From Malassezia furfur (taxonomy: Eukaryota), in the NCBI GenBank assembly GCA_052055015.1, contig JBQJIT010000068.1: a DNA stretch of 36,016 bases; one strand, 5' to 3'. Made by a program: the position numbers and the translations under genes. Positions 3,115-30,579 of this stretch are shown here, in pieces (the stretch's first letter is position 1; every line of letters starts with the position of its first letter). The notes below the pieces were generated by a model, which was not told the origin of the DNA, did not search any database, and saw only the letters and a list, made by a program, of their open reading frames with translations.

Positions 3115-4708
3115 TCAGCGCCCGCCGTTGAACCGCTTCGACGCACCGTAGTCGTCCGCCTCGGGCGGTCCCCGCTTCTGCCCGCCACGGCCTGCGCGGC
3201 GATCGGACCGCGCACGGTCGCGGTCGCGCCGGCCATGCCGATCGCGGTCGCGGTCGCGGTCGCGGTCACGGTCCCGCCCGCCGCGCGGCGCATCGTCGTA
3301 CGCATACCGCTCGTCGTCGTATCGCGGCGTCGTCTGCCGCCGGTACCGGCGATCACTCTCGCCGTGCGGTGCGGATGCACCATAGTCCAGCGCATCGCCA
3401 GGACCCGCCTCGCTGTCCCGGTCGTTGTAGTACTCGCGCCGCGTCGCCGTAGGATGCAGCTCGGGCGCATATGCATCATCGTCGGGCGGCGGCGATCGGT
3501 CGTCTGCGCCCATACGCCCGTTCCGCCGCGACGCGTTTCCAGAGCGCGGCGCACTGCGGGTGTCGCGTCCGCCCCGACGAGAGCGCGCACCGTGCGCATC
3601 GCCGTCGTCGGGCTCGTGGCCGCTCCGTGCATCGTCCGCCGGCGGCACACCCCCAGGTGCGGCTGGCGGCGGCGCTGCACCGGCCGCCCAGGGCGGCACA
3701 TCCTGGCTCTCGGGCGGCGGCATGCCCATCATCGGCATGGCGTCGGACGGCGCACCTTGGGGTGCCCCCGGCGGCATCATCATCGGCCATTGCATCCCAG
3801 GCATTCCCATCATGCCCGGCGCAAACATTGCAGTCAGGTTCGCCATAGGGTTTTGTGCATCGCCCGATGCGCCCGGCGCGAATCCAGACTCGGCGCCGGC
3901 TTCGCCCTCGTTCGTAGCTTGCAGTGTGTTGGCAAACTCGGCCCGCGCCTGGCCCATGCGGTTCTTTTGCGCACACCACATCGCCCACGTTGCCTCATCA
4001 AACCCGTAGTTGAACCAGTCGCTCAGGTTGGCACCCGGCCGACGCCAGGGCTTTTCGGGCAGCGAATCGATGTCCACTTGGTATATGTTGAGTTTCGAGC
4101 TCGTATCGTCGTCAGTCTCGTAGATGGCATCCGTCGGCGGGTATTGCAGGGCCTCTGGCTTCGGCGACAACACCAACTCCGGCGCTGTAATGCCGGCCGT
4201 TGCCGGGGGGCCTTCGGGCTCGTCCGCATCCCCGGCCGCTGTCGAGACTGCGGGCTTCGCGGCCGGCGCCGGCGCCGGCGCAGAAGCGGGCACACTTGTG
4301 ACTGGTGCGGCTTGCGATGGCAGTGGTTCTGCTGCAGGACCGGGTACCGCAGGCACAGACGGCACGTCGTCGCCCGCCGGTGCATTCGTCGGCGCCTGGG
4401 TCGCAGGTGTCTCGGTCGCAGCTTTGCTGGGGCTCTTGATAGGCACGGGGGTAGGCGCATACGTTGCTGAGCGCGACGGGGGTACCGCAGGCGCATTCGG
4501 GTCGATAATGAACTCGATATCCTGTGGTCAGAAGAAAGGCACATACCGAATCGTCGCTGTCTTCCTCTTCGTCGTCGTCTGATGCGGGACCTTCGGGCGC
4601 CGCAGCAGGCACAGGGGCGCTCGGCGCTGCTGGCTGCTCCGTTGGAGCAGGTGCCGCAGGCGCAGCAGGGGCCTCGTCCCCGTACAGGAACGCGTCGTCG
4701 TCGTCCAT
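3115..4708 (-). CDS. FIP1: Pre-mRNA polyadenylation factor Fip1
   Basis: Exons 4708-4547 and 4521-3115 (25-nt intron 4522-4546). Acidic N-terminus MDDDDAFLYG...DDSDIEFIID, Fip1 motif EKPWRRPGANLSDWFNYGFDEATW, C-terminal RD dipeptide repeat. Confidence 0.93.
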
Positions 4709-4822
4709 CGCGTCTGGACCACGGCGATTCGGGGATCGAACTGGGAAGTATGCACACGAAAAGGCCGCGGGGCAAACCCCAGCGTGGCTGCAACGCCTCC
4801 TTACCTCCACGACCGTTCAGCC

Positions 4823-5267
4823 ATGACATCCGCAGCGGCCGGTCGCTTCAGCTCTTTCTGGAACGGGCCGACGGGTCCCAAGACGGGTATGTTGGATACC
4901 GCGTGCGTGCTTATCCAGTGTTCTTTTGGGCGCCTGCGATGAAGTGGGGCATTGTCCTGGCCGGGATCAACGACCTCTTCCGCCCGGCCGACCAGATCTC
5001 GGTCGCTCAGAACACGGCGCTTGCGCTCACCGGATCGATCTGGGTCCGGTATGTGCGTGCGTACTGACACAGCTATTGCTTCGTGATCACCCCGGTGAAC
5101 TACTCGCTTGCGGCTGTCAACTTCTTTGTCGGTTCGACCGGACTGGTGCAGCTGGCTCGCGTGGCTCAGTATGTGGGATATGCTCACACAGTTACCGTTA
5201 TACGCACCCTGAGGCGGCCGCAAAGCCCGCTGCTGTTGCGCCTTCGCCCGACACCAAACCGCACTGA
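4823..5267 (+). CDS. MPC2: Mitochondrial pyruvate carrier subunit 2
   Basis: Exons 4823-4886, 4919-5048, 5073-5168, 5192-5267 (introns 32, 24, 23 nt) give 121 aa with GPKTVFFWAPAMKWG...ALTGSIWVRYCFVITPVNYSLAAVNFF. Confidence 0.92.
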
Positions 5268-5535
5268 GGGAAGGCGGGTGCGGGCAGACCCTGTAGGATT
5301 GTATGTGCCAACCGAGGAAACGATACGCATGTTTCGCGCGCGCGACATAGGCACCGTGATTCATATCACCCTGTGTAGCGTACAGCACGACTCCGTGCTA
5401 TGTCGCTACGTCCGCCGCGTCCGCCGCGTCCGTTCACTGTACGCTGCAGCGCTGCGTCCCCGTCACGATCACGTGGGGAGCCTAGTGCGGCGGCGCGTGG
5501 AAGCTCGCACGAGCCGTACCATTCAATCAATCATC

Positions 5536-6311
5536 ATGGCCTCTTCGTTTCGGCAGACGGGCCGCAAAATCGTTGCGTATGTTTCGTGCATTCACACAGG
5601 ATCGGCCGCAACTTTGCTGACCATGCAAAAGAACTGAACAATGCGGTGCCGACGGAGCCGTTCTTCTTTCTGAAGCCGACGTCCAGCTACATTGGCTCTG
5701 GCGACGCGATTGAAATCCCGCGCGGCGTCGTGGCGCACCATGAGGGTAGGTGTATGGCTTATGGCAGTGGAGCTGGCCGTGGTCCTCGGGCAAAAAGCGC
5801 GCGATATCAAGGCATCGCAGGCCAACGACTACATCGGTGGTTATGGTACGTGGACATCATTCATTCAGCGCTCGCAATCGATATGACCGCACGGAATGTG
5901 CAGGATAAGGCGAAGAAGGCCGGACTGCCGTGGTCAACCGCCAAGGGATTTGACACCTTCACGCCGATCAGTGCATTTGTGCCGAAAGACGCGATTGCTG
6001 ACCCGAGCAACGTGAACCTCTGGCTCAAGGTCAACGACGAACTCAGGCAGAACGGAAACACGCAGGACATGATCTTTGACATCCCTGCCTTGCTGGCCCA
6101 CGTTTCGTCTATCATGACCCTGGATGTGGGTGACGTGATTTTGACCGGTACGTTGCTCCTTCTGACGCAAGGCACACCCAAGGGCGTTAGCCAAATCAAC
6201 CCTGGCGACCACGTCACCGCCGGGATGCAGCTGCCCGGCTCATCCAAGATCCTGGCCGAGCTCAAGCTGCGTGCTATGCAACGCGAAGGAGGCTTTGTTT
6301 TCCAGGGATAA
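5536..6311 (+). CDS. FAHD1: Fumarylacetoacetate hydrolase family protein (FAHD1/Fmp41-like acylpyruvase / oxaloacetate decarboxylase)
   Basis: Exons 5536-5576, 5600-5745, 5768-5845, 5869-6147, 6172-6311 (introns 23, 22, 23, 24 nt) give KIVAIGRNFADH, FFLKPTSS, HHEVEL, DMTARNVQ, KGFDTF and GDVILTGTPKGV. An upstream in-frame ATG exists at 5329. Confidence 0.92.
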
Positions 6312-6343
6312 TAACGAATACTATACAACTAGGTCATACTAGG

Positions 6344-6963
6344 TTATGCAGCAGATGACTGGCGCTGAAGTTAGTATAGGCTTGCATACCTGCTCCAATG
6401 CAGCCACCTTTTCGGCGAGCCGCTTGCGCTCCGTGCGGAGCTTCTCGAGGGTCCGGCGCTGCTCCTCAATCTCGGTCTGTGTCACGAGCGCAGCGACAGA
6501 CGGTGAGGACCGCGACGAGTCGCCAAGCACTCCCTGAGCTCCTGACCGTGCCTCAAGCTGCGCAAGCTCTTGTGTGGCCTGGTTGCGCAGCGTACGCGCG
6601 TGCCGCTCGTCATTGGTAAGCGCGTCCTCAGCGCGTACGATCAATTCACGCAGTAGCGGTGCAATTTCGGCGGCAACATGATCGCGTGCTTGCCGCACAT
6701 CGCGCTCCGACACGAGGTCAAAGTGCTGTTTTGTCAGTGGGTATGCACATACGCGTTGGCTCGCCATAGCGGTGCGTAGCCGATCAAAGTCGCCCGTGTG
6801 GTGCGCCAGAATTTGGTTGGTTTCGGCGACCTGCGTGAGGCCAGAAACGTACGATATCACATGAGGCTCGCACACTTTCGATGCATGCATGGATGCTGTT
6901 GAGCTGATGTACACTGGCCGCGGGGTTCCCGTACAGCGACTGTCGCGGCGGCATTCGCGCCAT
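6344..6963 (-). CDS. SPC19: DASH/Dam1 kinetochore complex subunit Spc19
   Basis: Exons 6963-6853, 6830-6753, 6725-6390, 6364-6344 (introns 22, 27, 25 nt), 181 aa. DFDRLRTAMASQRHFDLVSERDVRQARDHVAAEIAPLLRELI plus a C-terminal coiled coil (LEKLRTERKRL) match the Spc19 pattern. Confidence 0.8.
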
Positions 6964-7016
6964 GGTGGAGTCGCGTCGCGCCGGTGGAGGACAACACGGA
7001 TCGGCCGAACGCGTCC

Positions 7017-7571
7017 ATGGACTTGGTGTCCGTGCTCGGCACGGCGGTCGGAAGCAACGCATGGACGGCGCTGCTGGGCGCGGATGCTGACTCGTTGGAG
7101 CTGCGCACATACCCCGACACACACTATTACAATGCCCGTACGCGCGGCGTCAGTTTCCAGGTCAATCCGGAGACATCGCGTGTCGTAACCATTGACGTGT
7201 ACAACGCGCAACCACGGTGGGGAACCTACACTTCCTATCCGATTGCGATTCACTACTGGGCGGACGACACGCACGAGCGTCACCTCGACATTACGCCGAC
7301 GACCAAAGCGATCGATCTCGTCCAGGCGCTCGGTGAGCCGTCGCGCAAAGGCGGCGCCGAAGCGGGTGGTCCCACGGCGCGCGCGCTGGGCCCAGCGATG
7401 TGGACCGAGTGGGCCTTGTCCGTCGATGTACCTGCTGTCGGGCGCACGACACTTTACCTTTTGGCCGAGTATGCGGGCGAGGCTGCGCGCGCGCGCGACC
7501 GATGGGAGCCCGGCCGGGGCAGCGAGGCGACGTGGGCGACGCTGGCCCTATCTCTAGTACCCCCACCATAG
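7017..7571 (+). CDS. Conserved fungal hypothetical protein (184 aa)
   Basis: Intronless ORF from ATG 7017 with globular composition. Motifs ELRTYPDTHYYN...GVSF and LVQALGEPSRKGG...WTEW resemble an uncharacterised basidiomycete family (recollection only). Confidence 0.75.
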   Translation: MDLVSVLGTAVGSNAWTALLGADADSLELRTYPDTHYYNARTRGVSFQVNPETSRVVTIDVYNAQPRWGTYTSYPIAIHYWADDTHERHLDITPTTKAIDLVQALGEPSRKGGAEAGGPTARALGPAMWTEWALSVDVPAVGRTTLYLLAEYAGEAARARDRWEPGRGSEATWATLALSLVPPP

Positions 7572-7756
7572 CGAGCATGTGAAGAATTGCACATCCTCTC
7601 GCGACTACGAAAGAGCTCGATCTACTCGCGCTTCTCCTAGCCGACAATTAACGGACCAGAGCATGCGACTTACTCGGATCTGCATTACAGTGACAATTGA
7701 TTAGAAAGGCGATATGGAGCAAGTTTCAAAAAGACATGAGTTGGGCACCCAGAAAA

Positions 7757-8875
7757 TTACTGCGACCAGGGGGCACCGCCGGTGTAGGTCTCACCCTCAA
7801 CCGAGCGCTGGTTGGTGCCGAGGTTCAGCAGGCCAGCGTCCTCGACCGAGCGGGTCTCGCTGGTGAGCACACCGCCACCCTTCACGAAGTCCTCCTTGCG
7901 GATCGGCTGGTGAGCAGTCGACTCGTGCACAATGGGGGCCTCGTGGGTGATCTGAGTGGTCGGGACCGTGGTGCGGATACGGTGGTACTCGTACACGTCC
8001 TTCTCAATGATCGGCTGGACGATGTTGTGGATGTGGTGGTGCACAATCTCACGGACAGTCTCGCCCTTGTCAATCACCGAGCGCTCAATGGGAGCCTGGG
8101 TGTAGGTGTCCTTGGGGGTGCCAGCGACCGAGCGGAGCAGGGCAGCGTCCTTGTCGGTGTTGGCGTGCACCTCACGGATGGTGGTGGCAGGCACCACACG
8201 GGTGTGCAGCTGCTCAGCAAGGTGGACCTGGTCGAGCACGGGCTGCACGTGGTGCTGGATGTGGTGCTGGTGGATGTGGTGCTCACGCTCGCGGTGGAGC
8301 TCCTCAATCTCCTGGCGGTGGAGGGTCTCGCGGGTGACCGGGGCGAGGTGCTGCACGTCCTGGTCGACGTTGCCAGCAGCCACGTTGACACCCGAGTTGA
8401 CGCTCGAGGTCTGGGTCAGGTTCGAGCTGCGGTTGTAGGCCGACTCCGAGGGCTGCACACCCACGGTCTCGGTCTGCTGCGAGACGGGCACACCGCTGGC
8501 GACAGCAGTCTTCTCAGTGGCCGACGAGCCAGTGAGACCCGAGGCACCGGTGCCAACAGCGCCGACGCCGCCAGCCGACGAGGCGTCCTTGCCGACCGAC
8601 CAGGGGCCCTGCGAGGCCGACGAGGTGGTCTCCTTGGTGGCCTGCTGGGCACCGTGGTGGTGGTTGCCGAACATGCCGGTGATCTTCTCGCGAGCGTCGC
8701 CGAGGATGCCCTCGCCCTTGTGCTCAGCGCCCTTGGCGCCCTCCTCGCCGCGGTGGAAGATACCGCCAGCGTGCTCCGTCTTGGAGGTAGCACCCTGGGT
8801 GGTCTCGCCGATCTTGTTGCCGGCCTCACCCTCAGCCTTGTCGGTGTTGAAAACCTTCTTAATAACGTTGGACAT
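7757..8875 (-). CDS. His-rich hydrophilic protein of the fungal family often annotated 'allergen'
   Basis: Intronless 372 aa ORF with strong C/G-ending codon bias and an upstream TATA box. G/E/K/T-rich N-terminus; His-rich blocks REHHIHQHHIQHHVQPV and EIVHHHIHNIVQPIIEK. Confidence 0.8.
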   Translation of the reverse strand: MSNVIKKVFNTDKAEGEAGNKIGETTQGATSKTEHAGGIFHRGEEGAKGAEHKGEGILGDAREKITGMFGNHHHGAQQATKETTSSASQGPWSVGKDASSAGGVGAVGTGASGLTGSSATEKTAVASGVPVSQQTETVGVQPSESAYNRSSNLTQTSSVNSGVNVAAGNVDQDVQHLAPVTRETLHRQEIEELHREREHHIHQHHIQHHVQPVLDQVHLAEQLHTRVVPATTIREVHANTDKDAALLRSVAGTPKDTYTQAPIERSVIDKGETVREIVHHHIHNIVQPIIEKDVYEYHRIRTTVPTTQITHEAPIVHESTAHQPIRKEDFVKGGGVLTSETRSVEDAGLLNLGTNQRSVEGETYTGGAPWSQ

Positions 8876-8922
8876 GGTTCTTTAGTTCGATGTGGGAGAA
8901 GAGGCCGGGCCCGCCCCGGGCC

Positions 8923-8931
8923 TTTTATATA
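8923..8931 (-). promoter_or_regulatory. TATA box (TATATAAAA) of the His-rich allergen-type gene
   Basis: Reverse-strand TATATAAAA about 50 nt upstream of ATG 8875, embedded in very GC-rich sequence. Confidence 0.75.
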
Positions 8932-9430
8932 GGGCTACCGACCATTTCGGGACATCCCTGCATGGGCGCCTGCGCGGGCCCGAGCGTTCCGCTCGCGTTC
9001 CGCGCGGGTCCAATCGCGTTCGCGCGCAACGAGTGACGTGGAGTGGACGAAACAGTGTGGAATTTAGACGCCTAGCCAAGGAGAATCGGGCTAATCCGAA
9101 AACCGAGCCAATCAGAACGTGTACAGGATGTACGTTCGCGGCAAAATTGCACTGGCGGTGCAGCTATCGTCATACACCGCAGATTGCGCACGATCCTGCT
9201 GCACAAGCGATCCGCCTGCCGCTGACCCAGACGCAGTATGACCGCGTTCGGCAGCCCTGACTATCCACGCCCTACCAGCATGGTCGGACCCGCCGCCGAC
9301 GTATCGCGGAGATTTCGTCGAGACTCTTGAGTATGCGTGCCTGAATGGGTACAACGCGTTAGGGTTTTGTGTCCGTCGAGTCGCATGCAGGCGTGCGGAG
9401 GGCGAGCGAAGCGGGGACTCGGTACGCGGC

Positions 9431-10570
9431 CTAGGCCCCTTGCTCGTTGCGCTTGCGCTTCCGCGGCTTAACCTTTTGTTTGGCACGGACCACCTCAGGT
9501 GTGTGTGCAGCGTCGCTAGAAGGCATCGGCTCACCGTCCTTCTCGGCGGGCACCACCGAGAGCCGCGACACGGCACCTCGGAATGTTTGTCGCGTCTCTG
9601 CTGTCAGCTAAGTAGTACGTACGGGCACGGATCAACAAAGATCGGCAAGTAGCAGAGAGGGTATCTTTCGCAGACGTAGGGGTCATGCCCATCAGTGTCG
9701 CCCTAGACATCAGCTTCGCAGTGGATACGTACAAGTTCATCACATCGTACGGCGCACGAAGACTCATCGCGGCCAGTGCGCCGCTCGAGAAAATTACGCC
9801 TTTGCCATTTGTCACTCGCAGAAGATCCCGCGCATTGCTGAAGAGATTGCGCCGCGCAGTTGGCACATCGCGCACCTCGCGCGATGGATCCAAAGCATCG
9901 CCGTAGGTGATTTCAAACACCACACCGTTGGCGAGCGCCGCGCCCACGGTGCTTCGCTTTAGATGGAAGGGAAGACGGGGGGAAGCGGCCAGATCCAGCG
10001 TGATAATGTCGATACTGAACGGCTTTAGTTCACTGAGTGTGATGCACGCATGCTGGAAAGCCATGTCGGTCAGAGGCATCACGGACAACAGGTCATACTG
10101 AAGAAGCGCATTACTGTTTGCCGTGACAAAGCCCGTGCCCGACTTGATCAGGTTATCTTTGTCTAGAACCACCGTGAGTCGGCTGAGTTGTGTGAGCGGC
10201 GAGGCTTGAACTGAACACTTGCCGCACACGCGGGGGTCCAGTTTAGGGAACGGAGGATGTGGACGTTGTTGTTGCCGGCGAAATGGGTTAATATATGTGG
10301 TTGGGTCAAGTTTACCGTAAACGGTTTGGTTGTAGGCAATCACATTGTATCCCACTGTATGAGTTTCAGACACATACATGACCGCAGCTCGTAGGTCAGC
10401 GTAGTGACGCGCTGCTGCTCCGCCGAAGAGAGCCGCGCCAGGGCTTCGTCGTCCGGGCGTTCCTCTTGTGTTGTTACTGAGGATGATGGATTGTTCTTTT
10501 TCCCCTTCTTATTCGGCGCATCCACAGCTAGACCTTGTGATGGCCACGGTATATTCAGATCGTAAAACAT
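9431..10570 (-). CDS. RPP1: RNase P/MRP subunit Rpp1 (p30)
   Basis: Exons 10570-10378, 10354-9733, 9702-9623, 9597-9431 (introns 23, 30, 25 nt). MFYDLNIPW start, GYNVIAYN, QLSRLTVVLD, YDLLSV, IDIITLD, GVVFEITY, GVIFSSGA...LRAPYDVMNL; basic C-terminus KPRKRKR. Confidence 0.92.
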
Positions 10571-10711
10571 GCTCTGTCGGCACGTCCTCTGCGAAGCGCG
10601 TTAGGTTCTCCGCGCAGGTGGAGGCAACGCGCGAAATTTCGTTCACGTGGCTGTGTGCGGCGTCTTGCAGCGTGGACATTGCATGGACACACTGTCGTCG
10701 GCGCGTCCACC

Positions 10712-11619
10712 ATGCCGCCGTACGTGGTGCTGCGACGCGATTATAGCACGGATGATCTCGTGCCTACAACAGATCAACGTAACACGATCATTGTTGCGTG
10801 CGTGTATGCCCTGGCTATCCTGCTCCTGGTAGGTCCGTGCGCGCAACCTCTTCTTACGCCAGTGGAACATCCCAATTCTCAAGGTGATTCTGTACCCATT
10901 TAAACTTTTGGTACGTTGACCATACTAAGTAAGACGGTCGGGTTCCATGAATTCTCTCACGCCCTGATGGGCGTACTCACATGCGCGAAAATTGAGTCGA
11001 TCCAGCTCGACCCCGACGAGGGCGGTGCAACGCGTATGCGCGGGGGCATCCACCTGCTCACGCTGCCGGCCGGCTACCTTGGATCGTCGCTGATTGGCGC
11101 CATTTTGATTGCATGCGGCTTCGATGAACGCGCTAGCAAGGTCGCCAGTCTCGTTGTGGCTGCCTTCTTCCTTGTGATGCTCTGGTGGGCAAGACGAAGC
11201 TGGGTGTACGTACGCGCGACTGATGGAAAAGTACCTGGCTCCTGATTATTTTCATGGTCGGATTGTTTGTCCTATTTTGGGTATGTGTCTGTACTTACCA
11301 CAGCTTGTCGAAAGCTCGGTCGCTCTGCGATACTTTGTGCTTTTTATTGGTGTGATGAATTGCCTGTACTCAGTGTGGGACATTTGCGATGACCTCGTCT
11401 TCCGCAAAGTGAACGAGTCAGATGCGACTGCTTTCGCCAAGCTGGTAGGCTGTTGCCCACCCCAAGTATGGGGCGTCGTCTGGCTACTAATCAGCATTGC
11501 TTTCTTTGCGGGCGGGATTCTGTATGTATTTTGGCTCACCCAGCGTCGGTCTCGTACTGTTCAAAACGCCCGTCTCAGAACAAAAATCGGACGACTTCCT
11601 GCGGGTTCCTACTCGTTAA
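10712..11619 (+). CDS. Peptidase M50B-like multi-pass membrane metalloprotease
   Basis: Exons 10712-10828, 10863-10910, 10934-11205, 11232-11280, 11304-11521, 11544-11619 (introns 34, 23, 26, 23, 22 nt), 259 aa. YPFKLLTVGFHEFSHAL (HExxH), GGATRMRGG, LPAGYLGS, YSVWDICDD and several hydrophobic helices. Confidence 0.88.
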
Positions 11620-15135: not shown

Positions 15136-15194
15136 GGGCTGGAGAACATGCACGGACGCGGGGTGGTTGCGCTGACTAAGCGCAAAGTAGGTAC

Positions 15195-16452
15195 ATGCTC
15201 CGCAACGGTGTGCGGCATACGATCTCCCCCGTACGCTTCACCCGCCCGCTGTTTCCTCGTTTGTGTAGGAGTCTTGTTCAGCTCAGGATGTCGGATATTG
15301 TGAACCTTGATCCACTTGTTGCCGAAAAGTTCAAGGCAGCCGTCGATGCCGGCGACGCCTTCTTTTTCGACTCGACCGTGCACATTACGGGCAATCAGGA
15401 CAAGAGCCACCCGCCTATTGCTTCGGTACCATGGCAAGTGCGCACTGTGCCTGCCCTTCTCAAGAAGCCTACTGCCAACAAGGAGGAGCCGAAAGATGAG
15501 AAGCCGAAGGACGAGAAGCCGAAGCAGAACCAGAAGGATGTGTTCGCTCCTCCCTATGTGCCGAATCTTCTCGTGAAAGAGTTTGCCGACTTTACTGTCC
15601 TGCTCAACAAGTACTGCGTGCTTCCTAAGCACTTCCTCATGGTGACCAAAGGTACGCCACTCGACTTACCTAGACTTTGTCAATCAGGAGCTTCCGCCGT
15701 CCCCAGAAATGCTTGCATCGGTGTACCTTGTAATTGAGAGGCATCGTGCGGAGCATCCTCAGGCGGAACTGCTTGGATTTTTCAACTGTGGCAAGGACAG
15801 TGGTGCGTCGCAGCCGCACTGTCACTTCCAGATGGTCGAGCTGGTACCCGAAAAGTCGACGATGGCCGTGCCGATTGAGAACCTGTTGCAGCACATTGAG
15901 CGTGACGGGAAGGAGTATAGTACGTGGTTAACTGACACAGGTGATGTACACTTGTTGCCTGTTCCGTGGCAGCATTTTGTCGTACTACTGGATCCCCCGA
16001 GCGACGAAACGCAGCTTTCGACCTATTTGGGACACCGCTTCACGCAGCTGCTTGACTGCATGTTTGCTGCCGCGCGCGACCTCAATCATATTCAAGGAAC
16101 AGAGCCGCGCCGCGGTCCGCCTCAGTTCAATATCTTGCTCACCAAGCGCGCGATGCACCTCATCCCGCGGCGCCAGGAGGGCTTTGACTTGAACACTACC
16201 GACTGGGCACCGTACAACAACGGGCAAGCACCGGAGCATACGGGTACACTCAGCGTAAATGCGCTCGGTATGTCTCTTACTGACTCAGGGTACGCGGGTC
16301 TCTTTTTGACACGGCACAAGGCGGAGCTGGAGGCGATGACCGACCCCGCCAATGCCCGCATTGCGCATGTGCTTGCCCAAACCGGCGTGCCGATTCCGAT
16401 CCAAGAAGGTACGGAGGCTCCCGCCGCCGACGAGAAAAAGGCCGATGCCTAG
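15195..16452 (+). CDS. Ap4A phosphorylase / ATP adenylyltransferase (Apa1/Apa2 family)
   Basis: Introns 15652-15673 (22 nt), 15920-15940 (21), 16268-16288 (21). Motifs DVFAPP, LLNKYCV, FFNCGKDSGASQPHCHFQ (HxHxQ), and SVNALGYAG after splicing. Two in-frame ATGs: 15195 and 15288. Confidence 0.9.
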
Positions 16453-16463
16453 CTTGGCATACA

Positions 16464-17850
16464 CTACATACCTTGGAATATACGAGAAATGTTGATAAAG
16501 AGTGCCAGCACCAGTACAGCTCCGCCCCAGAGCCCCAGGAAGAAGGCGGACGAGTGTAGAGTCGCGTTCGGCTCATCATCGTACATGCGGCGATACAGCA
16601 ATGCAGGGAGAATGAAGGAGATAGTCGTGCTTCCCACTGATCCAACGATGCCCAGCACAATCGACAGGTCGTCGATCAGCAGGCTCACTAGCAGGCCGGC
16701 AGTCATGAGCGCCAGCGTGAGGAGCGACCAGCGCCGATCGTTTACCTCGTAGTGAACCACCGGATCCATTTCGGCGGTTCCTGGGCCAAGCATGGACTCC
16801 TCTGTGTCTTCCGAGGAGAGGATGGTCGCATTCACCTCGAGCATGTTGATCAAACTCGCACGGCAAGGGTATAGTTGCATCGGATAGCTCGTGAGCGTCA
16901 GTGCGATCACGGAGAGCTTGCCGATGCTCACAAACAGGCTCGACGAAGGGTACATGGCAATAATGTTGTCACCCACCTGGGAGCCAAACGTCGCATATCC
17001 GACCGAGGCGACCACGACGTAGACCATCGCGCATGCGCCCAGCGAGACAATCGTCACAAGCGAAGAGCGCTTCACGGTACTGTCCCGAAGCTCGCTGTAC
17101 ACAGGCAGGATGTTTTGAGCGCATGTATACGCAAACACCATGATGGGGAAGGTACGGAGCACATCCGTAGAGAAGATCACCGCGGCGATCTCTCCACGAG
17201 GCGGCAGCGTCGCACGCGCCGTGCCCGACAAAAAGTAGTAAAGCATGATCACCAGCAAGTACACGACCGCGGCCATGTTCAGGTAGCCGATACCGCGCAT
17301 CTGGTGTAGCTTCCGGTAGAAGCACACGGGGCTGACTAGTGCCAGCGATACGATCACCCACAGCAGCTTGCTGAGGAAAAAGGCAGGTACGGTGTGCGTG
17401 TCGCCACGGATCGACTGTGCAAAGCTCAGGACCACCTGGGGCATCAGGTGCCCGCAAATCATCAGATAAGACACGCCTACGCCAAAGCACTGGGTCAGCG
17501 GTAGAGTAGCGCACCTTGACAAAGATAGTCACGTCAAAGTACCATACGGCCGAGGGCATCACCTGGCTCGTCATGTCGTAAAAGCTCTGCGGCCGGCGGT
17601 CCATGCGCACTTCGCACAGCTTGACGAGGTGCAGGCCAAAGTTGGTCACGACGGCGCACAGCAGCACCAGCACCGTGCCCAACAGCCATCCCATCGTCGC
17701 ATAGGCGTGCGGCAGTGCGAGCATGCCGGCGCCGATGATAGTGTTTGTCAGTCCGCTGATGCTCGACAGCACGGTCGCAGATCCGTGGACCTCCTCGCCA
17801 TCTTCGCCAAGCGCGACGGCGCCGCGGCGCTCCTGCGTCGGTTCGTGCAT
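16464..17850 (-). CDS. Vacuolar amino acid transporter (AVT5/6/7-like, Aa_trans family)
   Basis: Exons 17850-17515 and 17489-16464 (25-nt intron). SSISGLTNTIIGAGMLALPHA, KCFGVGVSYLMI, FAYTCAQN, GYATFG, SYPMQLYPCR, VGSVGSTTISFILP; about 11 hydrophobic segments. Confidence 0.9.
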
Positions 17851-17947
17851 CGCGGCCCGGAGGAAACCCACGTGGAGTGGGTTTGCCCACGTGGCGAAGT
17901 AACACTTGCGCGCGCGGGGTGGCGAATTCGACGCGACGCGTCCCACG

Positions 17948-19048
17948 ATGTCTGAGGAACACGCCGCGGAACCGCAGGAGATGGAGGAGGTCATCGGGCC
18001 CCTCCCCATCAGCAAGATGGAGGTAAGCGGTTGTGCTAATGTTAGGAATTCGGCATTTCGGCTTCGGACTGCAAGAAGCTCAAGGAGGCCGGCTTCCACA
18101 CGCTCGAGAGTCTCGCGTTTACCCCCAAGAAAACGCTGGTGGGGATCAAGGGCATGTCCGAGCAAAAAGTGGACAAGATCTTGAGTGAAGGTACGCGAGA
18201 CGCGCTCACCCAGCCGCCAAGCTCGTGCCGCTCGGCTTCACTACCGCAACCGAATATCATCAGCGCCGCTCGGATTTGATCACGATTACCACCGGTTCGC
18301 CTGCACTGGATCTTGTGATTGGCGGAGGTATGGAAACGGGAAGTATCACAGAACTCTTCGGCGAGTTCCGCACCGGCAAGAGCCAGATCTGCCACACACT
18401 TGCTGTCACCTGCCAGCTGCCTATCGATATGGGTGGTGGTGAAGGCAAGTGCCTATACATCGATACGGAGGGTACCTTCCGTCCGGTGCGTCTGCTGGCT
18501 GTCGCTGAGCGATTTGGCCTGGATGGAGAGGAGGTGCTCGACAACGTTGCGTATGCACGTGCCTACAATGCCGACCACCAACTCGAGCTCCTCGTTCAGG
18601 CAGCAGCCATGATGGCCGAGTCGCGGTTTGCGCTGCTGATCGTCGACTCGCTCACCTCGCTGTACCGCACCGACTTTGCGGGCCGCGGCGAGCTGTCGGC
18701 GCGTCAGACGCATCTCGCCAAGTTCCTACGTACGCTTCTGCGCCTCGCCGACGAGTTTGGTGTGGCAGTGGTGGTCACCAACCAGGTCGTGGCACAGGTG
18801 GACAATGCTGGGTTTGGTGGCATGGAAACAAAGAAGCCGATCGGCGGCAACATTGTGGCCCATGCGTCTACGACACGGTACGTTGCGCCCTAACGCAGTT
18901 TGTCACTCCGCAAGGGGCGCGGAAATCAGCGGATTTGCCGTGTGGTAGATTCCCCCTCCCTTCCCGAGGCTGATGCCGTGTTTGCCATCAAGCCCGAGGG
19001 CATCGCCGATCCAGTAGGTGGCGCATGCGCTGACCGCAGGACGAGTAG
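17948..19048 (+). CDS. RAD51: DNA recombinase Rad51
   Basis: Exons 17948-18022, 18046-18190, 18214-18877, 18899-19013, 19040-19048 (introns 23, 23, 21, 26 nt), 335 aa. Walker [45 protein letters not shown]. Confidence 0.97.
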
Positions 19049-19100
19049 TTGTTGTAGTGTAGTGCACCTCCACATTCCCCACGCTGTGACCATCTCCGCC

Positions 19101-20046
19101 ATGGCGTCCGAGGCACGCAAGGGCCTTGCGGCGCTCAGCGCGCGCGATGCTGCGCCACGCTTCCAGTCGCTGTGTGCTTCGACTTTTTCTGCATTGCAGG
19201 AGCGGATACGGCTCGGCCATGAAGTTGCTATGTCAACAGAGGGCAGCGAGCACGCTTTCTTGCGCACCTTTCCCTACTTCGCGCGCGATAAAACCATCGC
19301 CAAGAACTTGCATACCCTGATGGACGCGCTCGATGCTTGGAATGCAACGCATGCTAATGGCGATCTTCTACAGAGCGACGACGTGCCTACGCTTGAACAG
19401 ATCACAGACTGGACCGCAACCGTGCACCGGTTGGTGCATCTGCTGGGCGAGACGAACAACGAGTTGAACGACCCGCGCGGCACCGAAATGCTCAATGAGC
19501 TCCGAATTGCGTACGTCATTGTCTGACACAGTCATCCACACGTGTTTGGGCTGGATATGAAGGCTGATGCGCCGTCTGACACGGCGCCTATGTCGCCGAT
19601 GCCCGAGGCGACCGAGCTCGTCGAGCCGCTACCGGCGTCGCATCTTCCGCGCGCTGAACTGATGTCCCATGTCGGTGAGATGCCCTCGACTGGATTTGCG
19701 CGCGACGAAGACGACGACCGTTTCGCTGCCCAGCAATTCGCGCAGCAAAATTTGGCATTCCGCCAGCAAGACACGCACTTGGACCACCTAAGTGCCTCCA
19801 TTTCTCGACAGCATGAGCTAAGCCTGCGTATGAATGAGGAGCTAGAGCTTCACACGGATCTCTTGCACGAGCTTGATCGTGATGTTGATGACACGGGCCT
19901 GCGGTTGGGCGGTGCCAATGACCGCCTTGAGCGGTTTCGGCGGAGCATGAAGGAGCACGGTAAGTCGCGATGCTTACGCAGGCTCTGTATGGGTCATCTT
20001 TGTGCTGATCTTCGTGCTGGTACTACTTATCTCGCTATTCAAGTAG
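19101..20046 (+). CDS. SYN8: Qc-SNARE, syntaxin-8/Syn8-like
   Basis: Exons 19101-19510, 19532-19959, 19982-20046 (introns 21, 22 nt). SNARE motif [34 protein letters not shown]...; C-terminal TM anchor [18 protein letters not shown]. Confidence 0.8.
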
Positions 20047-20053
20047 AGGGGTA

Positions 20054-21114
20054 TCATGCATCGGTGAGCGGACAGCACTGTGTCATTCAGTCCACCTACC
20101 AGGAACTCGACGAACGCATGGCCTGAGGCGGCAACTGTAAGAGGTGCCGCGCTCCGTGTCATGGCCTGAGCGTGGTGACTTGCAATCATGAACTGCACGC
20201 TTAGCATCCCGTTCTCGTCGATGCGGAGCGATGTCTTGAGTGATGTCTTGATGGCCTGCAGCATGTACGCAACGCATTGCAGTGGGTATGCACATGCAAC
20301 CGACTCGACGCAGTCAAATTTCTCCGTGAGCTGGTTTTCATTGGGAAACGAGATCTTTGTGAGGTTCAAACGTACCTCGGTGCTCCCATGGCTGTTTTCG
20401 GTGCTTAGATCGAGTCCACCGCGCTCTGTGCGTCCTGTACGTGGACGGAAATGAACATGCACTTGGGTCTCGCCGCCCGCATCGAGCTCCTGGAACGCGC
20501 GGGCAAGATATTCCGACTGGGTCAGTGATGCACGCACCTTCATGATGACCTGCGCAACGGTTGTCTCAGGCGAGAACTGCAGGTCCGGCACCATGCTCGA
20601 GTCGAGCGTGCGCAGCCGAAAGTTCATGTCGATGCGGCCAGTGTGCAGCCCGACGCTAAGGGGTTCTCCAAAGTCGCGGTAGGTTATCTCGACGTAGTCA
20701 CCCCGCCGCCGCGCGTCCATACCCCGAGAATCGTTTGCATGCATCCGACCTTCAAACAGCGTCAGACATTGCACCATCGTTGACACGTTGAGCTCGAAGC
20801 TAATATAGGGTTGTGCGTCCTCGTCATCGCTGTCATCTCTGTTGGCCAGTTCCATCCAATTTCTTGGCGGCACGAACGAGTATTCGTCAAAGATGGACGC
20901 GTAGAGATATGCGTGCGCTGCATTAGCGCAGGGACCTACCCTGCACGGCCTTGTTCACTTCCGATACCACCTCGAGACCGGACGCAGAAATGGATATGGT
21001 CGCAAACTAGGTAAGAAGGCCACCTACTGCTGTGAAATTGACCGCGCGCAACATGGCGGTCAGCATAGATGCGTCCGCGACGCGCGCGTACAGCACGCCG
21101 CGCGCCGTAGTCAT
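20054..21114 (-). CDS. RAD1: 9-1-1 checkpoint clamp subunit Rad1 (Ustilago Rec1 / S. cerevisiae Rad17 family)
   Basis: Exons 21114-21028, 21006-20940, 20917-20538, 20516-20376, 20354-20100, 20077-20054 (introns 21, 22, 21, 21, 22 nt), 317 aa. ISASGLEVVSE...QAHAYLYASIFDEYSF, IMKSEYLARAFQELD, KTSLRIDENGMLSVQFMI, FVEFLCCP. Confidence 0.9.
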
Positions 21115-21175
21115 GGCCAATGCGGCGTGGTTGGATCACGTGCCACAAAACGACGAAGCACAGACGCGAACCTCG

Positions 21176-22247
21176 ATGGCTTCGTCGCAAGCACCGCAGA
21201 AGTCGGCGCCGCTGACGTGCCATGGGCACACGCGACCAGTAGTGCACCTGGAGCATTCAGTGAAACAGGACGACGGGTCGTACCTGTTGCTTTCGAGCTG
21301 CAAGGATGGGAATCCTATGTACGTGGCGTCCCTCACACAGGCTTCGTGACTGGCTGGGCGACTGGGTTGGCACCTTCCTGGGTGCGTGTGTGTTACTGAC
21401 GCAGGCCACAAAGGTGCAGTATGGAGCGCAAAACTTTCTGAAGGCGACGCGGCGCGTGCCATCACAGGGAGTGCCGATTTTTCTGCAAAAGTGTGGGATA
21501 CGTACACGGGCGAGTGCGTGCAGACCTTTACGCACAATCACATTGTGCGCAGCGTCGCTGTGAACAGCGCAGGAACGCAGGTGCTTACTGGCGGTCACGA
21601 GAAAAAATTGCGCCTGTTTGATTTGCAGCACATAAAGGGAAACACCGCGGACGATGCACAGGTATTCGCCCCGAGGTCGGGATCCGATGACGGCACGACA
21701 CACAGCGGTACAATTCGCAGCGTCGTGCTGGGCCGCGGAACCAGTGGTGCCGAAAATGTGGTGGTGACGGCCGCCGAGGACAAGTGCATCCAGTGGTGGG
21801 ACATGCGCTCGATGCAGCCAGTGTACGAGCTCAACCTCGATGAGCCCTTTTCGTCCATGGAGCGCTGTGCGGGTGTCTATGGCGAGTACATTACGATCAC
21901 CGCCGGTAACCAGGCGATGTTTGTCGACTTGATGACGTATGTAAACACGCCGCGCTGACCACAGGCACGAAATTGTCAAGCAACACACGCTCGACATTGC
22001 GCCCTCGTCCGTGTACTTGCACCCCACGAAAGGTGACAAGTTTGTCGCTGGGTGCAGTGCAGACGAGTGGGTGCGTGTTTATGACTTTGAGACGGCCAAG
22101 GTGCTCGACCTGAGCAAGGGACACCATGGCCCCGTTCATTGCGTAAGCTATGCACCCGATGGCGAAGTTGCTGCTAGCGGCAGTGAGGATGGTACGATCC
22201 GTCTGTGGCAGACGAATCCCGGGACCAAGTACGGCCTCTGGTCGTAG
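21176..22247 (+). CDS. STRAP: WD40 protein STRAP/UNRIP (serine-threonine kinase receptor-associated protein)
   Basis: Exons 21176-21318, 21341-21381, 21405-21936, 21965-22247 (introns 22, 23, 28 nt). [69 protein letters not shown]...YGLW. Confidence 0.92.
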
Positions 22248-22419
22248 GTGGAGAATTGTACATACAAGGTTAAAATATGGGTATGCGTGTCAACGAGGTT
22301 GCGACACGACAGGCCACGACCCACGTTCCAGTGACGGATGTGGTAACGGGGTACCATTCAATGCGGAGTATCGCTTCCACAAATGTACGCATTACCGATC
22401 GACACAGAGAGATATAGAG

Positions 22420-22425
22420 TATAAA
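22420..22425 (+). promoter_or_regulatory. Putative TATA box (TATAAA) of the C2H2 transcription factor gene
   Basis: TATAAA about 49 nt upstream of ATG 22469, similar spacing to the TATA at 8923-8931. Confidence 0.5.
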
Positions 22426-22468
22426 GTGAGCGCAGTGCGTCCCCAGGCACACACATGTGCTGGTCACC

Positions 22469-23408
22469 ATGAGTCTGTCCAGCACCTCGGCACGGATAGA
22501 AGGCAAAGCGATGGAGCGCCGGTATCAGTGTCCATACAGCCCCTGCACCAAGTCGTTTGCACGGCAGTCGGATTTGAACAGGTACGCTACCCACTCACGC
22601 CAGGCACGTCCGAATCCATACCAACGAACGGCCGTACGCATGTGCGTACCCAGGGTGCAACCGACGGTTCGTGCAGAGCAGCTCGCTGCGTGTCCACCTT
22701 AACGTCCACACGGGTGCGCGACCGTACACTTGCGAGGTCTGTTCGCGCGCCTTTAGTGACACGAGCTCGTTGTCGCGGCATCGGCGCTCCCACACGGGGG
22801 TGCGCCCATACAAGTGCGAGTACGCAGGATGTGACAAAGAGTTTTGCCGTCGGACAACCTTGCGGCTCCACGTCCAGCGCGACCACGGCGAAACGTCGCC
22901 CAACGGGGCGTGGTCGTGCAACGACAGCGCGCAAGCCGATATGCCCAACATGCCGCATGCGCAGGCAATCCAGTGCAATGAGCCAGTGCCCTACAATGCG
23001 TCGCAGCTATTGGAAGACAACCTCGTCTTCCCCACGTGTGGCCAAACCCAAGCAACGAGTTCGCCTGTGCACGCCCATCTCTCGGAGCGCCGCATCGGGC
23101 CACAGCCGGCGCCGCTCCTTGTGTCTCCACCCCAAGCGCAGCTTGCCCCGCAAACGTCACTATCTTCGGTGTATGATCTGAGCGCACTGCAATCGGCCAT
23201 GTGCTTGAGCGCGCTGTCGTCGCCCGAGTGCTGGAGTTCGCCGGTGACCCCGGGCTTTCCGCTGACGCCCGTTACAGCTGTTTCCGCGCCGACTGATCCA
23301 TCCAAACACGCGGGTGTTCAATCCCAATATCTGGACCCAGGTGCATGGTCAATTCCATTTGTAGTGCATGGCGATGCGTCGCGCTATGCCTCCCACGTTT
23401 TTCTGTAG
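22469..23408 (+). CDS. Four-finger C2H2 zinc-finger transcription factor (possibly Znf2/Cos1-like)
   Basis: Exons 22469-22581 and 22604-23408 (22-nt intron). Fingers CPYSPC..FARQSDLNRHVRIH, CAYPGC..FVQSSSLRVHLNVH, CEVC..FSDTSSLSRHRRSH, CEYAGC..FCRRTTLRLHVQRDH with TGxRPY-type linkers; low-complexity tail. Subfamily call is inference. Confidence 0.9.
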
Positions 23409-29459: not shown

Positions 29460-30579
29460 CTAGCGCATGATTTCCTCGTAGATCAATCGTTTCAGCTCCT
29501 CGCGCGAAAGCGGTGCCTTGGCCGAGTCGGCGTCAAAGAAGCTCGGATCCAGCGGCTCCGCATCCGGTTCGTCGTTGGGGTCATGGTAAGGCTCGAGGTA
29601 GGGGTGAGCCAGCGCCTCTTCGACGGTGATGCGCTTCCGAGGCGAGAACTCGAGAAGCCGCTCGAGCAAGTCGATGGCAAGCGGGTCGGCGTTCGGGAAG
29701 AGCGTCGCAAAGTTTTTGCGCTTGCAGAACGGAAGCGAGCGGATGTAGTCGCGCGACCGTGCCGAGTTGATCGCGTAGAAGTCGTCCAGCGACGGAGTGC
29801 CCAGTACTTCGAGGATGAGCGAGAGCTGATGATGGTAGTCGCGCCCAGGGAACAGCGGGCGGCCAGACAGCATCTCGGCAAAAATGCAGCCGACGGACCA
29901 GAGGTCAATGGCTTTGGTATATTCCTTGAAGGTGAGCATGATTTCCGGCGCGCGGTACCAGCGTGTCGCGACATATTCCGTCAGGAACGCCTTGCCATCG
30001 GGCTCCGGCTGATCAGCACTGCGTGCAAGACCAAAGTCGCAGATCTTCAGGTCGCAGTTGGCGTTCAGCAGCAAGTTGCTCGGCTTCAGGTCGCGATGCA
30101 AAACGCCCGCCGAGTGCAGTGCCTTGAGGCCACGCAGAATCTGGTACACGAAGTACTGGTAGTGGTCGTTGGACAGATTTTGCGTACGGATCACACGGTG
30201 CATGTCCGTCTCCATGAGCTCCTGGATAAGGTGCACCTCGGTGAACGACTCGAGCGATGCGGGCCGAATGATGTCGAGAATCGAGATGATATTTTCGTGA
30301 TGAAAGTGGCGCAGAAGATGGATTTCCCGCAGCGTGCGCAGGCAGAACATCTGGTGATCAAACGGCGAGATGCGTTTGACAGCGACGCGCGTGGATGTGG
30401 GCAGGTGCACGGCCGAACTGGGTGAGCAATGGACCAACGTACTACACCACACCGTAGGCGCCCTCGCCTACCGTCTTAATCAGGCGGTACGTTCCGCCGA
30501 GCTGCGGCCCCACAGTGCCATCCGTGGCTACCGGTACAGCGGCGGTCGTGCCTGCATGTGTAGGGTCGGCGTTGTTCAT
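29460..30579 (-). CDS. KPP2: Fus3/Kss1-type MAP kinase (Kpp2/Ubc3 ortholog)
   Basis: Exons 30579-30443 and 30417-29460 (25-nt intron 30418-30442). [36 protein letters not shown] activation loop ([14 protein letters not shown]), [20 protein letters not shown]. Confidence 0.93.

Follow-up and report, generated by a model that had tools for sequence, protein, structure and literature searches.

How small can a spliceosomal intron become, and why no smaller? The question is raised by a stretch of 36,016 nucleotides (nt) of DNA from the yeast Malassezia furfur (assembly GCA_052055015.1, contig JBQJIT010000068.1), which in its entirety is called the window here. Four of its genes, encoding the Ap4A phosphorylase Apa2, Rad51, a tail-anchored SNARE-like protein and the checkpoint clamp Rad1, together contain seven predicted introns of exactly 21 nt. 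We propose, with a probability of roughly two in three, that these seven are ordinary U2-type GT-AG introns at the lower length limit of the window, 21 nt being the corner at which the smallest distance from the 5′ splice site to the branch adenosine (16) meets the smallest distance from the branch adenosine to the intron end (5). Pfam analysis of all long open reading frames (ORFs) indicates about 20 genes in the window, and in a protein search the best named matches of two of its read-through ORFs were Malassezia proteins: the Ap4A phosphorylase ORF is 64-77% identical to its counterparts in M. yamatoensis, M. psittaci and M. brasiliensis, and the Rad1 clamp ORF is 94% identical to an NCBI M. 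furfur record (P0057) and 100% identical to an unnamed cluster. Judged by these matches, the window is a gene-dense piece of the genome of a yeast of the M. furfur group.

Seven introns of 21 nt in four genes

The motif GTRNGTNNNNNNCTNACNHAG (GTRNGT-N6-CTNAC-N-HAG) matches exactly 7 sites on the two strands of the window: 15920-15940 and 16268-16288 (Apa2 introns 2 and 3), 18878-18898 (Rad51 intron 3) and 19511-19531 (intron 1 of the SNARE-like gene) on the plus strand, and 20355-20375, 20517-20537 and 21007-21027 (Rad1 introns 4, 3 and 1, referred to below by their 5′ ends) on the minus strand. All seven have a putative branch adenosine at position 16 (A16) followed by a tail of 5 nt. The preliminary description had listed seven 21-nt introns with one geometry, and the search returned the same seven sites, with the same letters and no other match. 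The number expected by chance is 0.01 (100 dinucleotide-preserving shuffles, none of which reached 7). Dropping the branch box from the motif (GTRNGT-N12-HAG) raises the number of matches to 11, versus 4.8 expected; the four that lack the box lie antisense to genes (9499, plus strand; 24545, minus strand), inside a long Sel1 ORF (33922, plus strand) or upstream of the first in-frame ATG of the kinase model (30787, minus strand), and they fit chance. Of the 39 introns obtained by gene-by-gene annotation of the window, likewise, exactly seven measure 21 nt, which is the shortest length in the set.

For comparison with relatives, a metagenome scan with a Rad51 exon yielded three syntenic Malassezia contigs, L001, L002 and L003, of which L002 and L003 look like one species (52-56% GC). 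Orthologous sites were compared by tblastx flank search; tblastx pairings were dropped as spurious for 21027 in L001 and L002 and for 15920, 19511, 20537 and 20375 in L001, and sites 15920 and 19511 in L001 were settled by tblastn.

Three of the seven introns (18878, 19511 and 21027) carry in-frame stops. Rad51 intron 3, with a CTAAC box and an in-frame TAA, splits the Rad51 Pfam model at position 207, where the match in ORF 18189-18890 stops and that in ORF 18894-19523 sets in again; the intron is precisely absent from L001 and 26 nt long in L002. Removal of 19511-19531, which contains an in-frame TGA, joins two ORFs into a single ORF of 300 amino acids (19101 to 20046) for the tail-anchored protein, and at this site the L001 and L002 orthologues lack the intron and continue across the junction with no insertion. 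Rad1 intron 1, with a CTTAC box, ends in an in-frame TAG, and its removal yields the N-terminus of P0057; here the flank search in L001 and L002 gave no usable match.

The other four (15920, 16268, 20537 and 20375) are in-frame and stop-free, which makes the ORF uninformative about them. One might suppose that they are often retained, as optional 7-residue insertions or partly coding micro-exons: retention leaves the frame intact, and 7-residue stretches are kept in two NCBI records, from M. yamatoensis at the 20537 site and from M. psittaci at the 21027 site. We consider this highly improbable, given that, apart from those two records, almost every named homologue in the alignments, be it from Malassezia or from the distant Ustilaginales (Ustilago/Thecaphora), has a gap opposite the translations of these stretches; besides the M. 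yamatoensis record, they are retained only by unnamed read-through ORFs of assemblies. At 15920, the read-through peptide STWLTDT is a gap in all named Malassezia and Ustilaginales homologues aligned, and in DNA the stretch is precisely absent from L001 and replaced by a 27-nt intron in L002. At 16268, the read-through MSLTDSG is a 7-residue insertion not found in named homologues; the close relative P0002 shifts frame there, so that its intron length cannot be a multiple of three, and the orthologous introns measure 33 nt in L001 and 27 nt in L002. In Rad1, VRASLTQ (20537) is a gap in P0057 and 6 other homologues, and VRLNLTK (20375, with a CTCAC box) is a gap in P0057 and the remaining named homologues; both introns are precisely absent from L002, in the case of 20537 with a 0-nt gap between the flanks, and neither site gave a usable match in L001. 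The stretches thus follow splice signals, not conserved residues. Overall, six of the seven introns are absent or of another length in syntenic relatives, 21027 being the site that lacks a usable match, and such precise presence or absence and change of length at the predicted borders is the behaviour of introns. By these sequence comparisons, all seven 21-nt stretches are genuine introns.

The two NCBI records (proteins P0059 and P0060) are of interest in their own right. The M. yamatoensis Rad1 record contains VGAPLIQ at the 20537 site, and the M. psittaci record contains VCCLLTK at the 21027 site. Both peptides are encodable by GT...CTNAY-N-HAG and, at the protein level, resemble in-frame introns of 21 nt that annotation failed to remove. 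Another protein, P0058, an unnamed read-through ORF with 92% identity, has ARLRLTQ at the 20375-20355 site where the window encodes VRLNLTK; the initial residue rules out GTN as its first codon, a hint, at the protein level, that a related strain has this intron in a GC-AG form.

With respect to class, the introns show the features expected of U2-type introns, namely, GT-AG ends, a GTRNGT-like 5′ splice site, a YTNAY box and a restored frame or homologous protein. Two other classes were considered and, on sequence grounds, rejected. The minor, U12-type introns have an extended 5′ splice-site consensus, RTATCCTT, and none of the 39 hexamers at the 5′ splice sites of the window fits this type. 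Introns cut by Ire1 (HAC1/XBP1) measure about 20-26 nt in some fungi, but reside in one dedicated transcript, are cut at paired stem-loop sites and have no GT-AG ends or branch box; the seven sites are spread over four unrelated genes, and all have GT-AG ends with CTNAC.

Branch position, tail length and the lower limit

We annotated 39 introns in 14 genes, gene by gene, taking the adenosine of the 3′-most YTNAY as the branch; the branch motif itself was among the means by which the set was found. A motif-free search by ORF joins produced 9206 'needed' candidates, open frames being plentiful at about 60% GC, and was replaced by the gene-by-gene models, all 14 of which close into single ORFs consistent with their Pfam domains. 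Intron lengths range from a minimum of 21 to 34 nt, with a median of 23 (seven introns of 21 nt, nine of 22, nine of 23, two of 24, five of 25, two of 26, and one each of 27, 28, 30, 32 and 34), and 36 of the 39 are shorter than 30 nt. With its bulk below 30 nt and a sharp lower limit, the set belongs to the ultra-short intron class represented in ciliates, microsporidia, dicyemids and myxozoans, although the limit is only as firm as a sample of 39 makes it. All 39 introns have GT...AG ends. At the 5′ splice site, G1, T2 and G5 are invariant, with A3 in 36/39 and T6 in 33/39, and three hexamers, GTACGT (13), GTATGT (11) and GTAGGT (6), account for 30/39. The 3′ half is nearly fixed, consisting of the branch box, one or two bases and HAG, and is too compact to hold a pyrimidine tract; length varies in the 5′ spacer. 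One nucleotide separates the box from HAG (tail of 5 nt) in 25 introns and two (tail of 6 nt) in 11; one intron has a tail of 7 nt, two have 8, and none has fewer than 5. The putative branch adenosine lies at position 16, 17 or 18 in nine introns each, at 19 in five, at 20 in three, and at 22, 23, 27 and 28 in one each. The combinations of branch position and tail include (16,5), (17,5) and (18,5), seven introns each, and (16,6) and (17,6), two each. The final triplet is CAG in 31/39, and the AG used is the first after the branch adenosine in 38/39, the exception being an intron of the RNase P p30 gene (9622-9598, minus strand).

The preliminary description had found the branch consensus relaxed and suggested that position outweighs complementarity to U2. 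This argument is weak because the degeneracy is limited to position -1 of an otherwise strong box. Indeed, a strict YTNAY is present near the 3′ end in 37/39 introns, the other two having CTAAG and ATGAC, and the boxes are CTGAC (13), CTCAC (8), CTTAC (5) and others. Relative to the branch adenosine, itself invariant, T at -2 occurs in 39/39, C at -3 in 36/39 and a pyrimidine at +1 in 38/39, and only -1 varies freely (G16 C11 T7 A5). A YTNAY pattern with a free -1 position is ordinary outside budding yeast, and an invariant T at -2 and A at 0, with a near-fixed C at -3 and pyrimidine at +1, is what one would predict from base pairing to the GUAGUA box of U2. An Rfam search of both strands of the whole window found no family at gathering score, and there is no snRNA gene there to inspect.

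In the Apa2 introns 15920-15940 and 16268-16288, branch boxes overlap (TTAAC with CTGAC, and CTTAC with CTGAC, respectively), which provides a candidate adenosine at position 12 (A12) besides A16. A16 is, in sequence terms, the common branch candidate of all seven 21-nt introns but not the sole one. One could then envisage that CTNAC-N-HAG is a single extended 3′ splice-site signal read by protein, with the lariat formed at other or several adenosines, such as A12 in these Apa2 introns. The second YTNAY in two of the seven, the degenerate -1 position and the putative status of all branch adenosines speak for this possibility, but five of the seven have no A12-type motif, and the constancy over 39 introns of T at -2 and A at 0, nearly matched by C at -3 and the pyrimidine at +1, is evidence against it, so that we regard it as quite improbable.

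Our preferred reading, with two separate lower bounds, is as follows. In each of the seven, the 5′ splice site GTRNGT occupies positions 1-6, followed by an unconserved 6-nt spacer, CTNAC with its adenosine at 16, one base and HAG; the branch box and HAG form a fused branch/3′-splice-site signal, with A16 as the presumed nucleophile. The 21-nt class would then be nothing special, only the shortest combination of the two distances. The bound of 16 nt could arise if an unshortened 5′ splice-site helix, an unshortened U2/branch helix and a short linker must fit the lariat loop, and that of 5 nt could be the shortest loop with which the terminal AG still gets to the catalytic centre. The introns of this lineage would have shrunk toward both bounds; in other Malassezia, three orthologous introns (at the 18878, 15920 and 16268 sites) measure 26-33 nt.

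The proposal that a 16-nt loop and a 5-nt tail add up to a 21-nt floor originates from the preliminary description. Its observation that, in the longer introns also, the branch adenosine lies at position 16 or later and mostly at -6 or -7 from the end extends to the full set, with 39/39 and 36/39 introns, respectively. As for the proposal itself, the data fit two separate lower bounds, whereas the hardness of these bounds is not established; from sequence, the idea is sensible but unproven. If branch position and tail length are independent, 5.8 introns of the (16,5) type are expected versus 7 seen, and 2.5 of the (16,6) type versus 2 seen. Motif matches with the adenosine before position 16 were not found in the window outside longer introns, nor were sense-strand candidates with a tail of 4 nt.

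An AG located 3 nt past the branch adenosine is skipped in favour of the next in one intron of the window (9598-9622) and in three of L002 (3095-3117, 3239-3263 and 8123-8149), as judged by gapless protein alignment. These introns end in ...CTGACAGCAG, ...CTGACAGTAG or ...CTAACAGCTAG.

The alternative is that no hard two-part limit exists: the short introns would result from deletion bias softly balanced by falling splicing efficiency, or from a single requirement on total length, and the bounds of 16 and 5 would be sampling effects in a set of 39. The small sample is compatible with this, as are the continuous pile-up at lengths of 21-23 nt, which shows no break of the kind that a wall would leave, the longer introns of relatives, which make the position of the pile-up evolvable, and the splicing of far shorter loops in the ciliate Stentor (PMC9505925). 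However, a single total-length ruler predicts introns of 21 or 22 nt with A15 and a 6-nt tail or A14 and a 7-nt tail, and none was seen; the adenosine is never before position 16 even in the 14 introns with tails of at least 6 nt, which argues against such a ruler. The onset is abrupt on both axes, with branch positions going from 0 to 9/9/9 and tails from 0 to 25, and the AG 3 nt past the branch is passed over in the four cases above. We therefore consider the soft-limit alternative unlikely.

Sites nested within introns were also considered as proof of a floor at A16, and rejected. Six of the seven internal GTRNGY sites would place the adenosine before position 16 and, by frame, are unused, but the one that gives an allowed A20 (in 10829-10862) is unused too, so that non-use of nested sites says little about a floor.

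Several points weigh against the two-bound reading. The sample consists of 39 introns from 36 kb, so that rarer introns below 21 nt are possible, and both the introns and their branch positions are predicted from sequence. Because the set was partly found by motif, in-frame, stop-free introns without the motif would be missed, and the introns at 6148, 6752 and 6389 rest on the motif with little else. The second YTNAY at A12 in the two Apa2 introns and the unused A20 site count on the same side, as do the longer introns of L001 and L002, mostly 22-33 nt with tails of 5-8 nt, which suggest that the compact layout may be lineage-specific. Finally, Stentor splices introns with the adenosine at position 10 (PMC9505925), and 16 thus does not hold as a physical minimum for all spliceosomes; it would be a property of the spliceosome of this lineage, perhaps owing to the retention of both helices at full length.

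A stronger version of the two-bound reading, which we put forward tentatively and hold to be rather doubtful, is that the M. furfur lineage has driven its introns to a hard limit, a 16-nt loop plus a 5-nt tail, with full-strength signals 6 nt apart. That would be too close for the U1 and U2 particles to bind side by side in the manner of textbook A complexes, so that recognition would be sequential or by a preassembled particle. The change in limit or pressure would be recent, given the lengths of 26-33 nt that sister Malassezia have retained where three orthologous sites were compared.

The remaining introns and their genes

In Rad1 (minus strand), the two other introns are 22 nt long, each with A17 and a 5-nt tail. 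Intron 2 (20918-20939; box CTAAT) is needed for the frame and gives a product that matches P0057; splicing of intron 5 (20078-20099; ATGAC) produces a C-terminus that P0057 and the M. vespertilionis homologue also have, whereas the unspliced ORF runs into the neighbouring gene. In the convergent SNARE-like gene (plus strand), intron 2 (19960-19981; 22 nt, A17, tail of 5 nt) is supported by closure of the ORF up to the C-terminal hydrophobic anchor. The stop codons of the SNARE-like and Rad1 genes end at 20046 and 20054, respectively, which leaves the coding regions 7 nt apart, so that their 3′ untranslated regions must overlap.

Rad51 (plus strand) has three further introns: intron 1 (18023-18045; 23 nt, GTAAGC, CTAAT, A17, tail of 6 nt) and intron 2 (18191-18213; 23 nt, GTACGC, A18, tail of 5 nt), both supported by ORF closure, and intron 4 (19014-19039; 26 nt, A20, tail of 6 nt). 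L001 has a 33-nt intron near the site of intron 1, and L002 has a 25-nt intron candidate directly past the end of its Rad51 match, comparable with intron 4. Apa2 intron 1 (15652-15673, plus strand; 22 nt, GTACGC, A17, tail of 5 nt) joins ORF 15180-15734 to ORF 15646-16449, between which the Pfam model Ap4A_phos_N is divided. A M. brasiliensis record annotated as 'ATP adenylyltransferase' (P0005, 444 amino acids) begins with M50B-peptidase sequence and contains Pfam M50B plus Ap4A domains; in the window, the M50B-like gene (10712-11619) and Apa2 (15195-16452) are separate, with an antisense PXA/PX gene between them. Judged from its domains, the record is probably a merged gene model.

The intron of the amino-acid transporter gene (17490-17514, minus strand; 25 nt, GTGCGC, A20, tail of 5 nt) joins two Aa_trans ORFs (model positions 3-91 and 90-379). 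The WD40 gene (plus strand) has three introns. Intron 1 (21319-21340; 22 nt, A17, tail of 5 nt) is supported by ORF closure, and the high-scoring segment of the L002 tblastn match breaks at the same residue. Intron 2 (21382-21404) measures 23 nt, with A18 and a tail of 5 nt; its internal GTGTGT sites would give A14 and A12, and the A12 option is frame-neutral and hence allowed by frame. Intron 3 (21937-21964; 28 nt, A22, tail of 6 nt) is again supported by ORF closure. The single intron of the C2H2 zinc-finger gene (22582-22603, plus strand; 22 nt, GTACGC, CTCAC, A16, tail of 6 nt) joins ORF 22430-22702 to ORF 22578-23405, and its splicing completes the first C2H2 finger. Shortly downstream of the WD40 orthologue of L002, where the zinc-finger gene lies in the window, there is a 22-nt intron candidate, which is a candidate for the corresponding site.

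Upstream, the Fip1 gene has one intron (4522-4546, minus strand; 25 nt, A19, tail of 6 nt; ORF closure), and the mitochondrial pyruvate carrier (MPC) gene has three on the plus strand: intron 1 (4887-4918; 32 nt, CTTAT, A27, tail of 5 nt), intron 2 (5049-5072; 24 nt, A19, tail of 5 nt) and intron 3 (5169-5191; 23 nt, A18, tail of 5 nt). MPC intron 2 contains an in-frame TGA, the Pfam model continues across it (60 to 59), and its nested GTGCGT sites would place the adenosine at 15 and 11 and break the frame. In the FAA-hydrolase (FAH) gene on the same strand, introns 1 (5577-5599; 23 nt, TTCAC, A18, tail of 5 nt), 2 (5746-5767; 22 nt, CTTAT, A16, tail of 6 nt) and 3 (5846-5868; 23 nt, TTCAT, A18, tail of 5 nt) are followed by intron 4 (6148-6171; 24 nt, A18, tail of 6 nt), which is in-frame and stop-free and has the weaker evidence of the motif only. 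The same holds for intron 2 of the Spc19 gene on the minus strand (6726-6752; 27 nt, A19, tail of 8 nt; in-frame, stop-free); Spc19 intron 1 (6831-6852; 22 nt, A17, tail of 5 nt) is needed for the frame, and intron 3 (6365-6389; 25 nt, TACTAAC, A19, tail of 6 nt) is indicated by the motif and an ORF that closes 8 codons on.

The p30 gene (minus strand) has introns of 23 nt (intron 1, 10355-10377; CTCAT, A18, tail of 5 nt), 30 nt (intron 2, 9703-9732; CTGAT, A23, tail of 7 nt) and 25 nt (intron 3, 9598-9622; CTGAC, A19, tail of 6 nt). Intron 2 is in-frame, the spliced protein aligns to L001 without gaps, and L002 has a 26-nt intron at this site. In intron 3, the AG at a tail of 3 nt is skipped: the 25-nt choice aligns gapless to L001, and the 22-nt choice would add one residue. 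The five introns of the M50B-like peptidase gene (plus strand) are intron 1 (10829-10862; 34 nt, A28, tail of 6 nt), in which an internal GTGCGC (A20) is, by frame, unused, intron 2 (10911-10933; 23 nt, TACTAAG, A18, tail of 5 nt), of which a 19-nt alternative breaks the frame, intron 3 (11206-11231; 26 nt, CTGAT, A18, tail of 8 nt), intron 4 (11281-11303; 23 nt, A17, tail of 6 nt) and intron 5 (11522-11543; 22 nt, A17, tail of 5 nt). The intron of the MAP-kinase-like gene (30418-30442, minus strand; 25 nt, A20, tail of 5 nt) restores the glycine-loop region of the kinase domain when spliced, and use of its nested GTTGGT would shorten it to 21 nt at the cost of the reading frame.

Intron length differs between neighbourhoods. 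The 19 introns from the Fip1 to the M50B-like gene (4522-11543) have a mean length of 25.1 nt and include none of 21 nt; the 19 from Apa2 to the zinc-finger gene (15652-22603) have a mean of 22.5 nt and include all seven (Mann-Whitney p=0.001; Fisher p=0.008), for a split that was made post hoc.

Precedents and meaning

Both halves of the layout have published precedents in other organisms, so that the 21-nt intron is a tidy example of a minimal intron, not a new kind of element. Introns of Yarrowia lipolytica are much longer overall, and therefore only the 3′ ruler is common to Yarrowia and the window. As described for Yarrowia, the branch point and the 3′ splice site are fused (CTAAC-N-YAG), with about 1 nt between the motifs, and CTAAC creates in-frame stops (PMC2911113). 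The introns of the window show the same fusion, with the difference that the Yarrowia box is a strict CTAAC (PMC2911113).

The tiny introns reported from Stentor coeruleus have their branch adenosine at position 10 of 15 nt or 11 of 16 nt and resemble those of the window in the length floor, the fixed putative branch adenosine, the 5-nt tail and the GT-AG ends; the GUAGUA box of Stentor U2 is conserved (PMC9505925). The two differ in the loop, 10-11 nt in Stentor versus at least 16 in the window, and in the signals: the account of Stentor gives a U-rich branch region without a strong consensus and a 5′ end with only GUA conserved, whereas the window introns have a full-strength 5′ splice-site hexamer and CTNAC (PMC9505925). 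The ultra-short introns described from myxozoans and dicyemids have a median of about 22 bp, GT-AG ends, little or no pyrimidine tract and an inferred U2-dependent recognition; as these introns lengthen, their weakly conserved adenosines move off the AG, whereas in the window the adenosine stays 5-6 nt from the AG and the spacer grows (PMC13644364).

The list of lineages with introns below 30 bp in the same 2026 source omits Malassezia (PMC13644364). Short introns are on record for the genus: M. sympodialis is reported to have 5350 introns with a mean of 30 bp, 99% of them supported by RNA-seq (PMC5389616), and a review terms Malassezia introns 'very short' (PMC7426719). The words 'branch' and 'lariat' do not occur in the main text of the M. 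sympodialis report, whose supplement holds a cumulative length plot only (PMC5389616), and no account of branch geometry or of a length floor in Malassezia introns was found in the parts of the full-text literature searched, including PMC8476143 and PMC3560662.

For annotation, the consequence is that gene callers read through the four of the seven 21-nt introns that are in-frame and stop-free, and 7-residue read-throughs of this kind appear to be present in public M. yamatoensis and M. psittaci records. For the question of how small a spliceosomal intron can become, the window offers a natural series, with a near-constant tail, a variable 5′ spacer and an abrupt onset at 16, in which, unlike in ciliates, both recognition elements remain strong. 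M. furfur is a culturable yeast for which gene-transfer methods exist. Thus, if the hard two-part limit is true, it would provide a transformable yeast for dissecting the minimal substrate of the canonical spliceosome.

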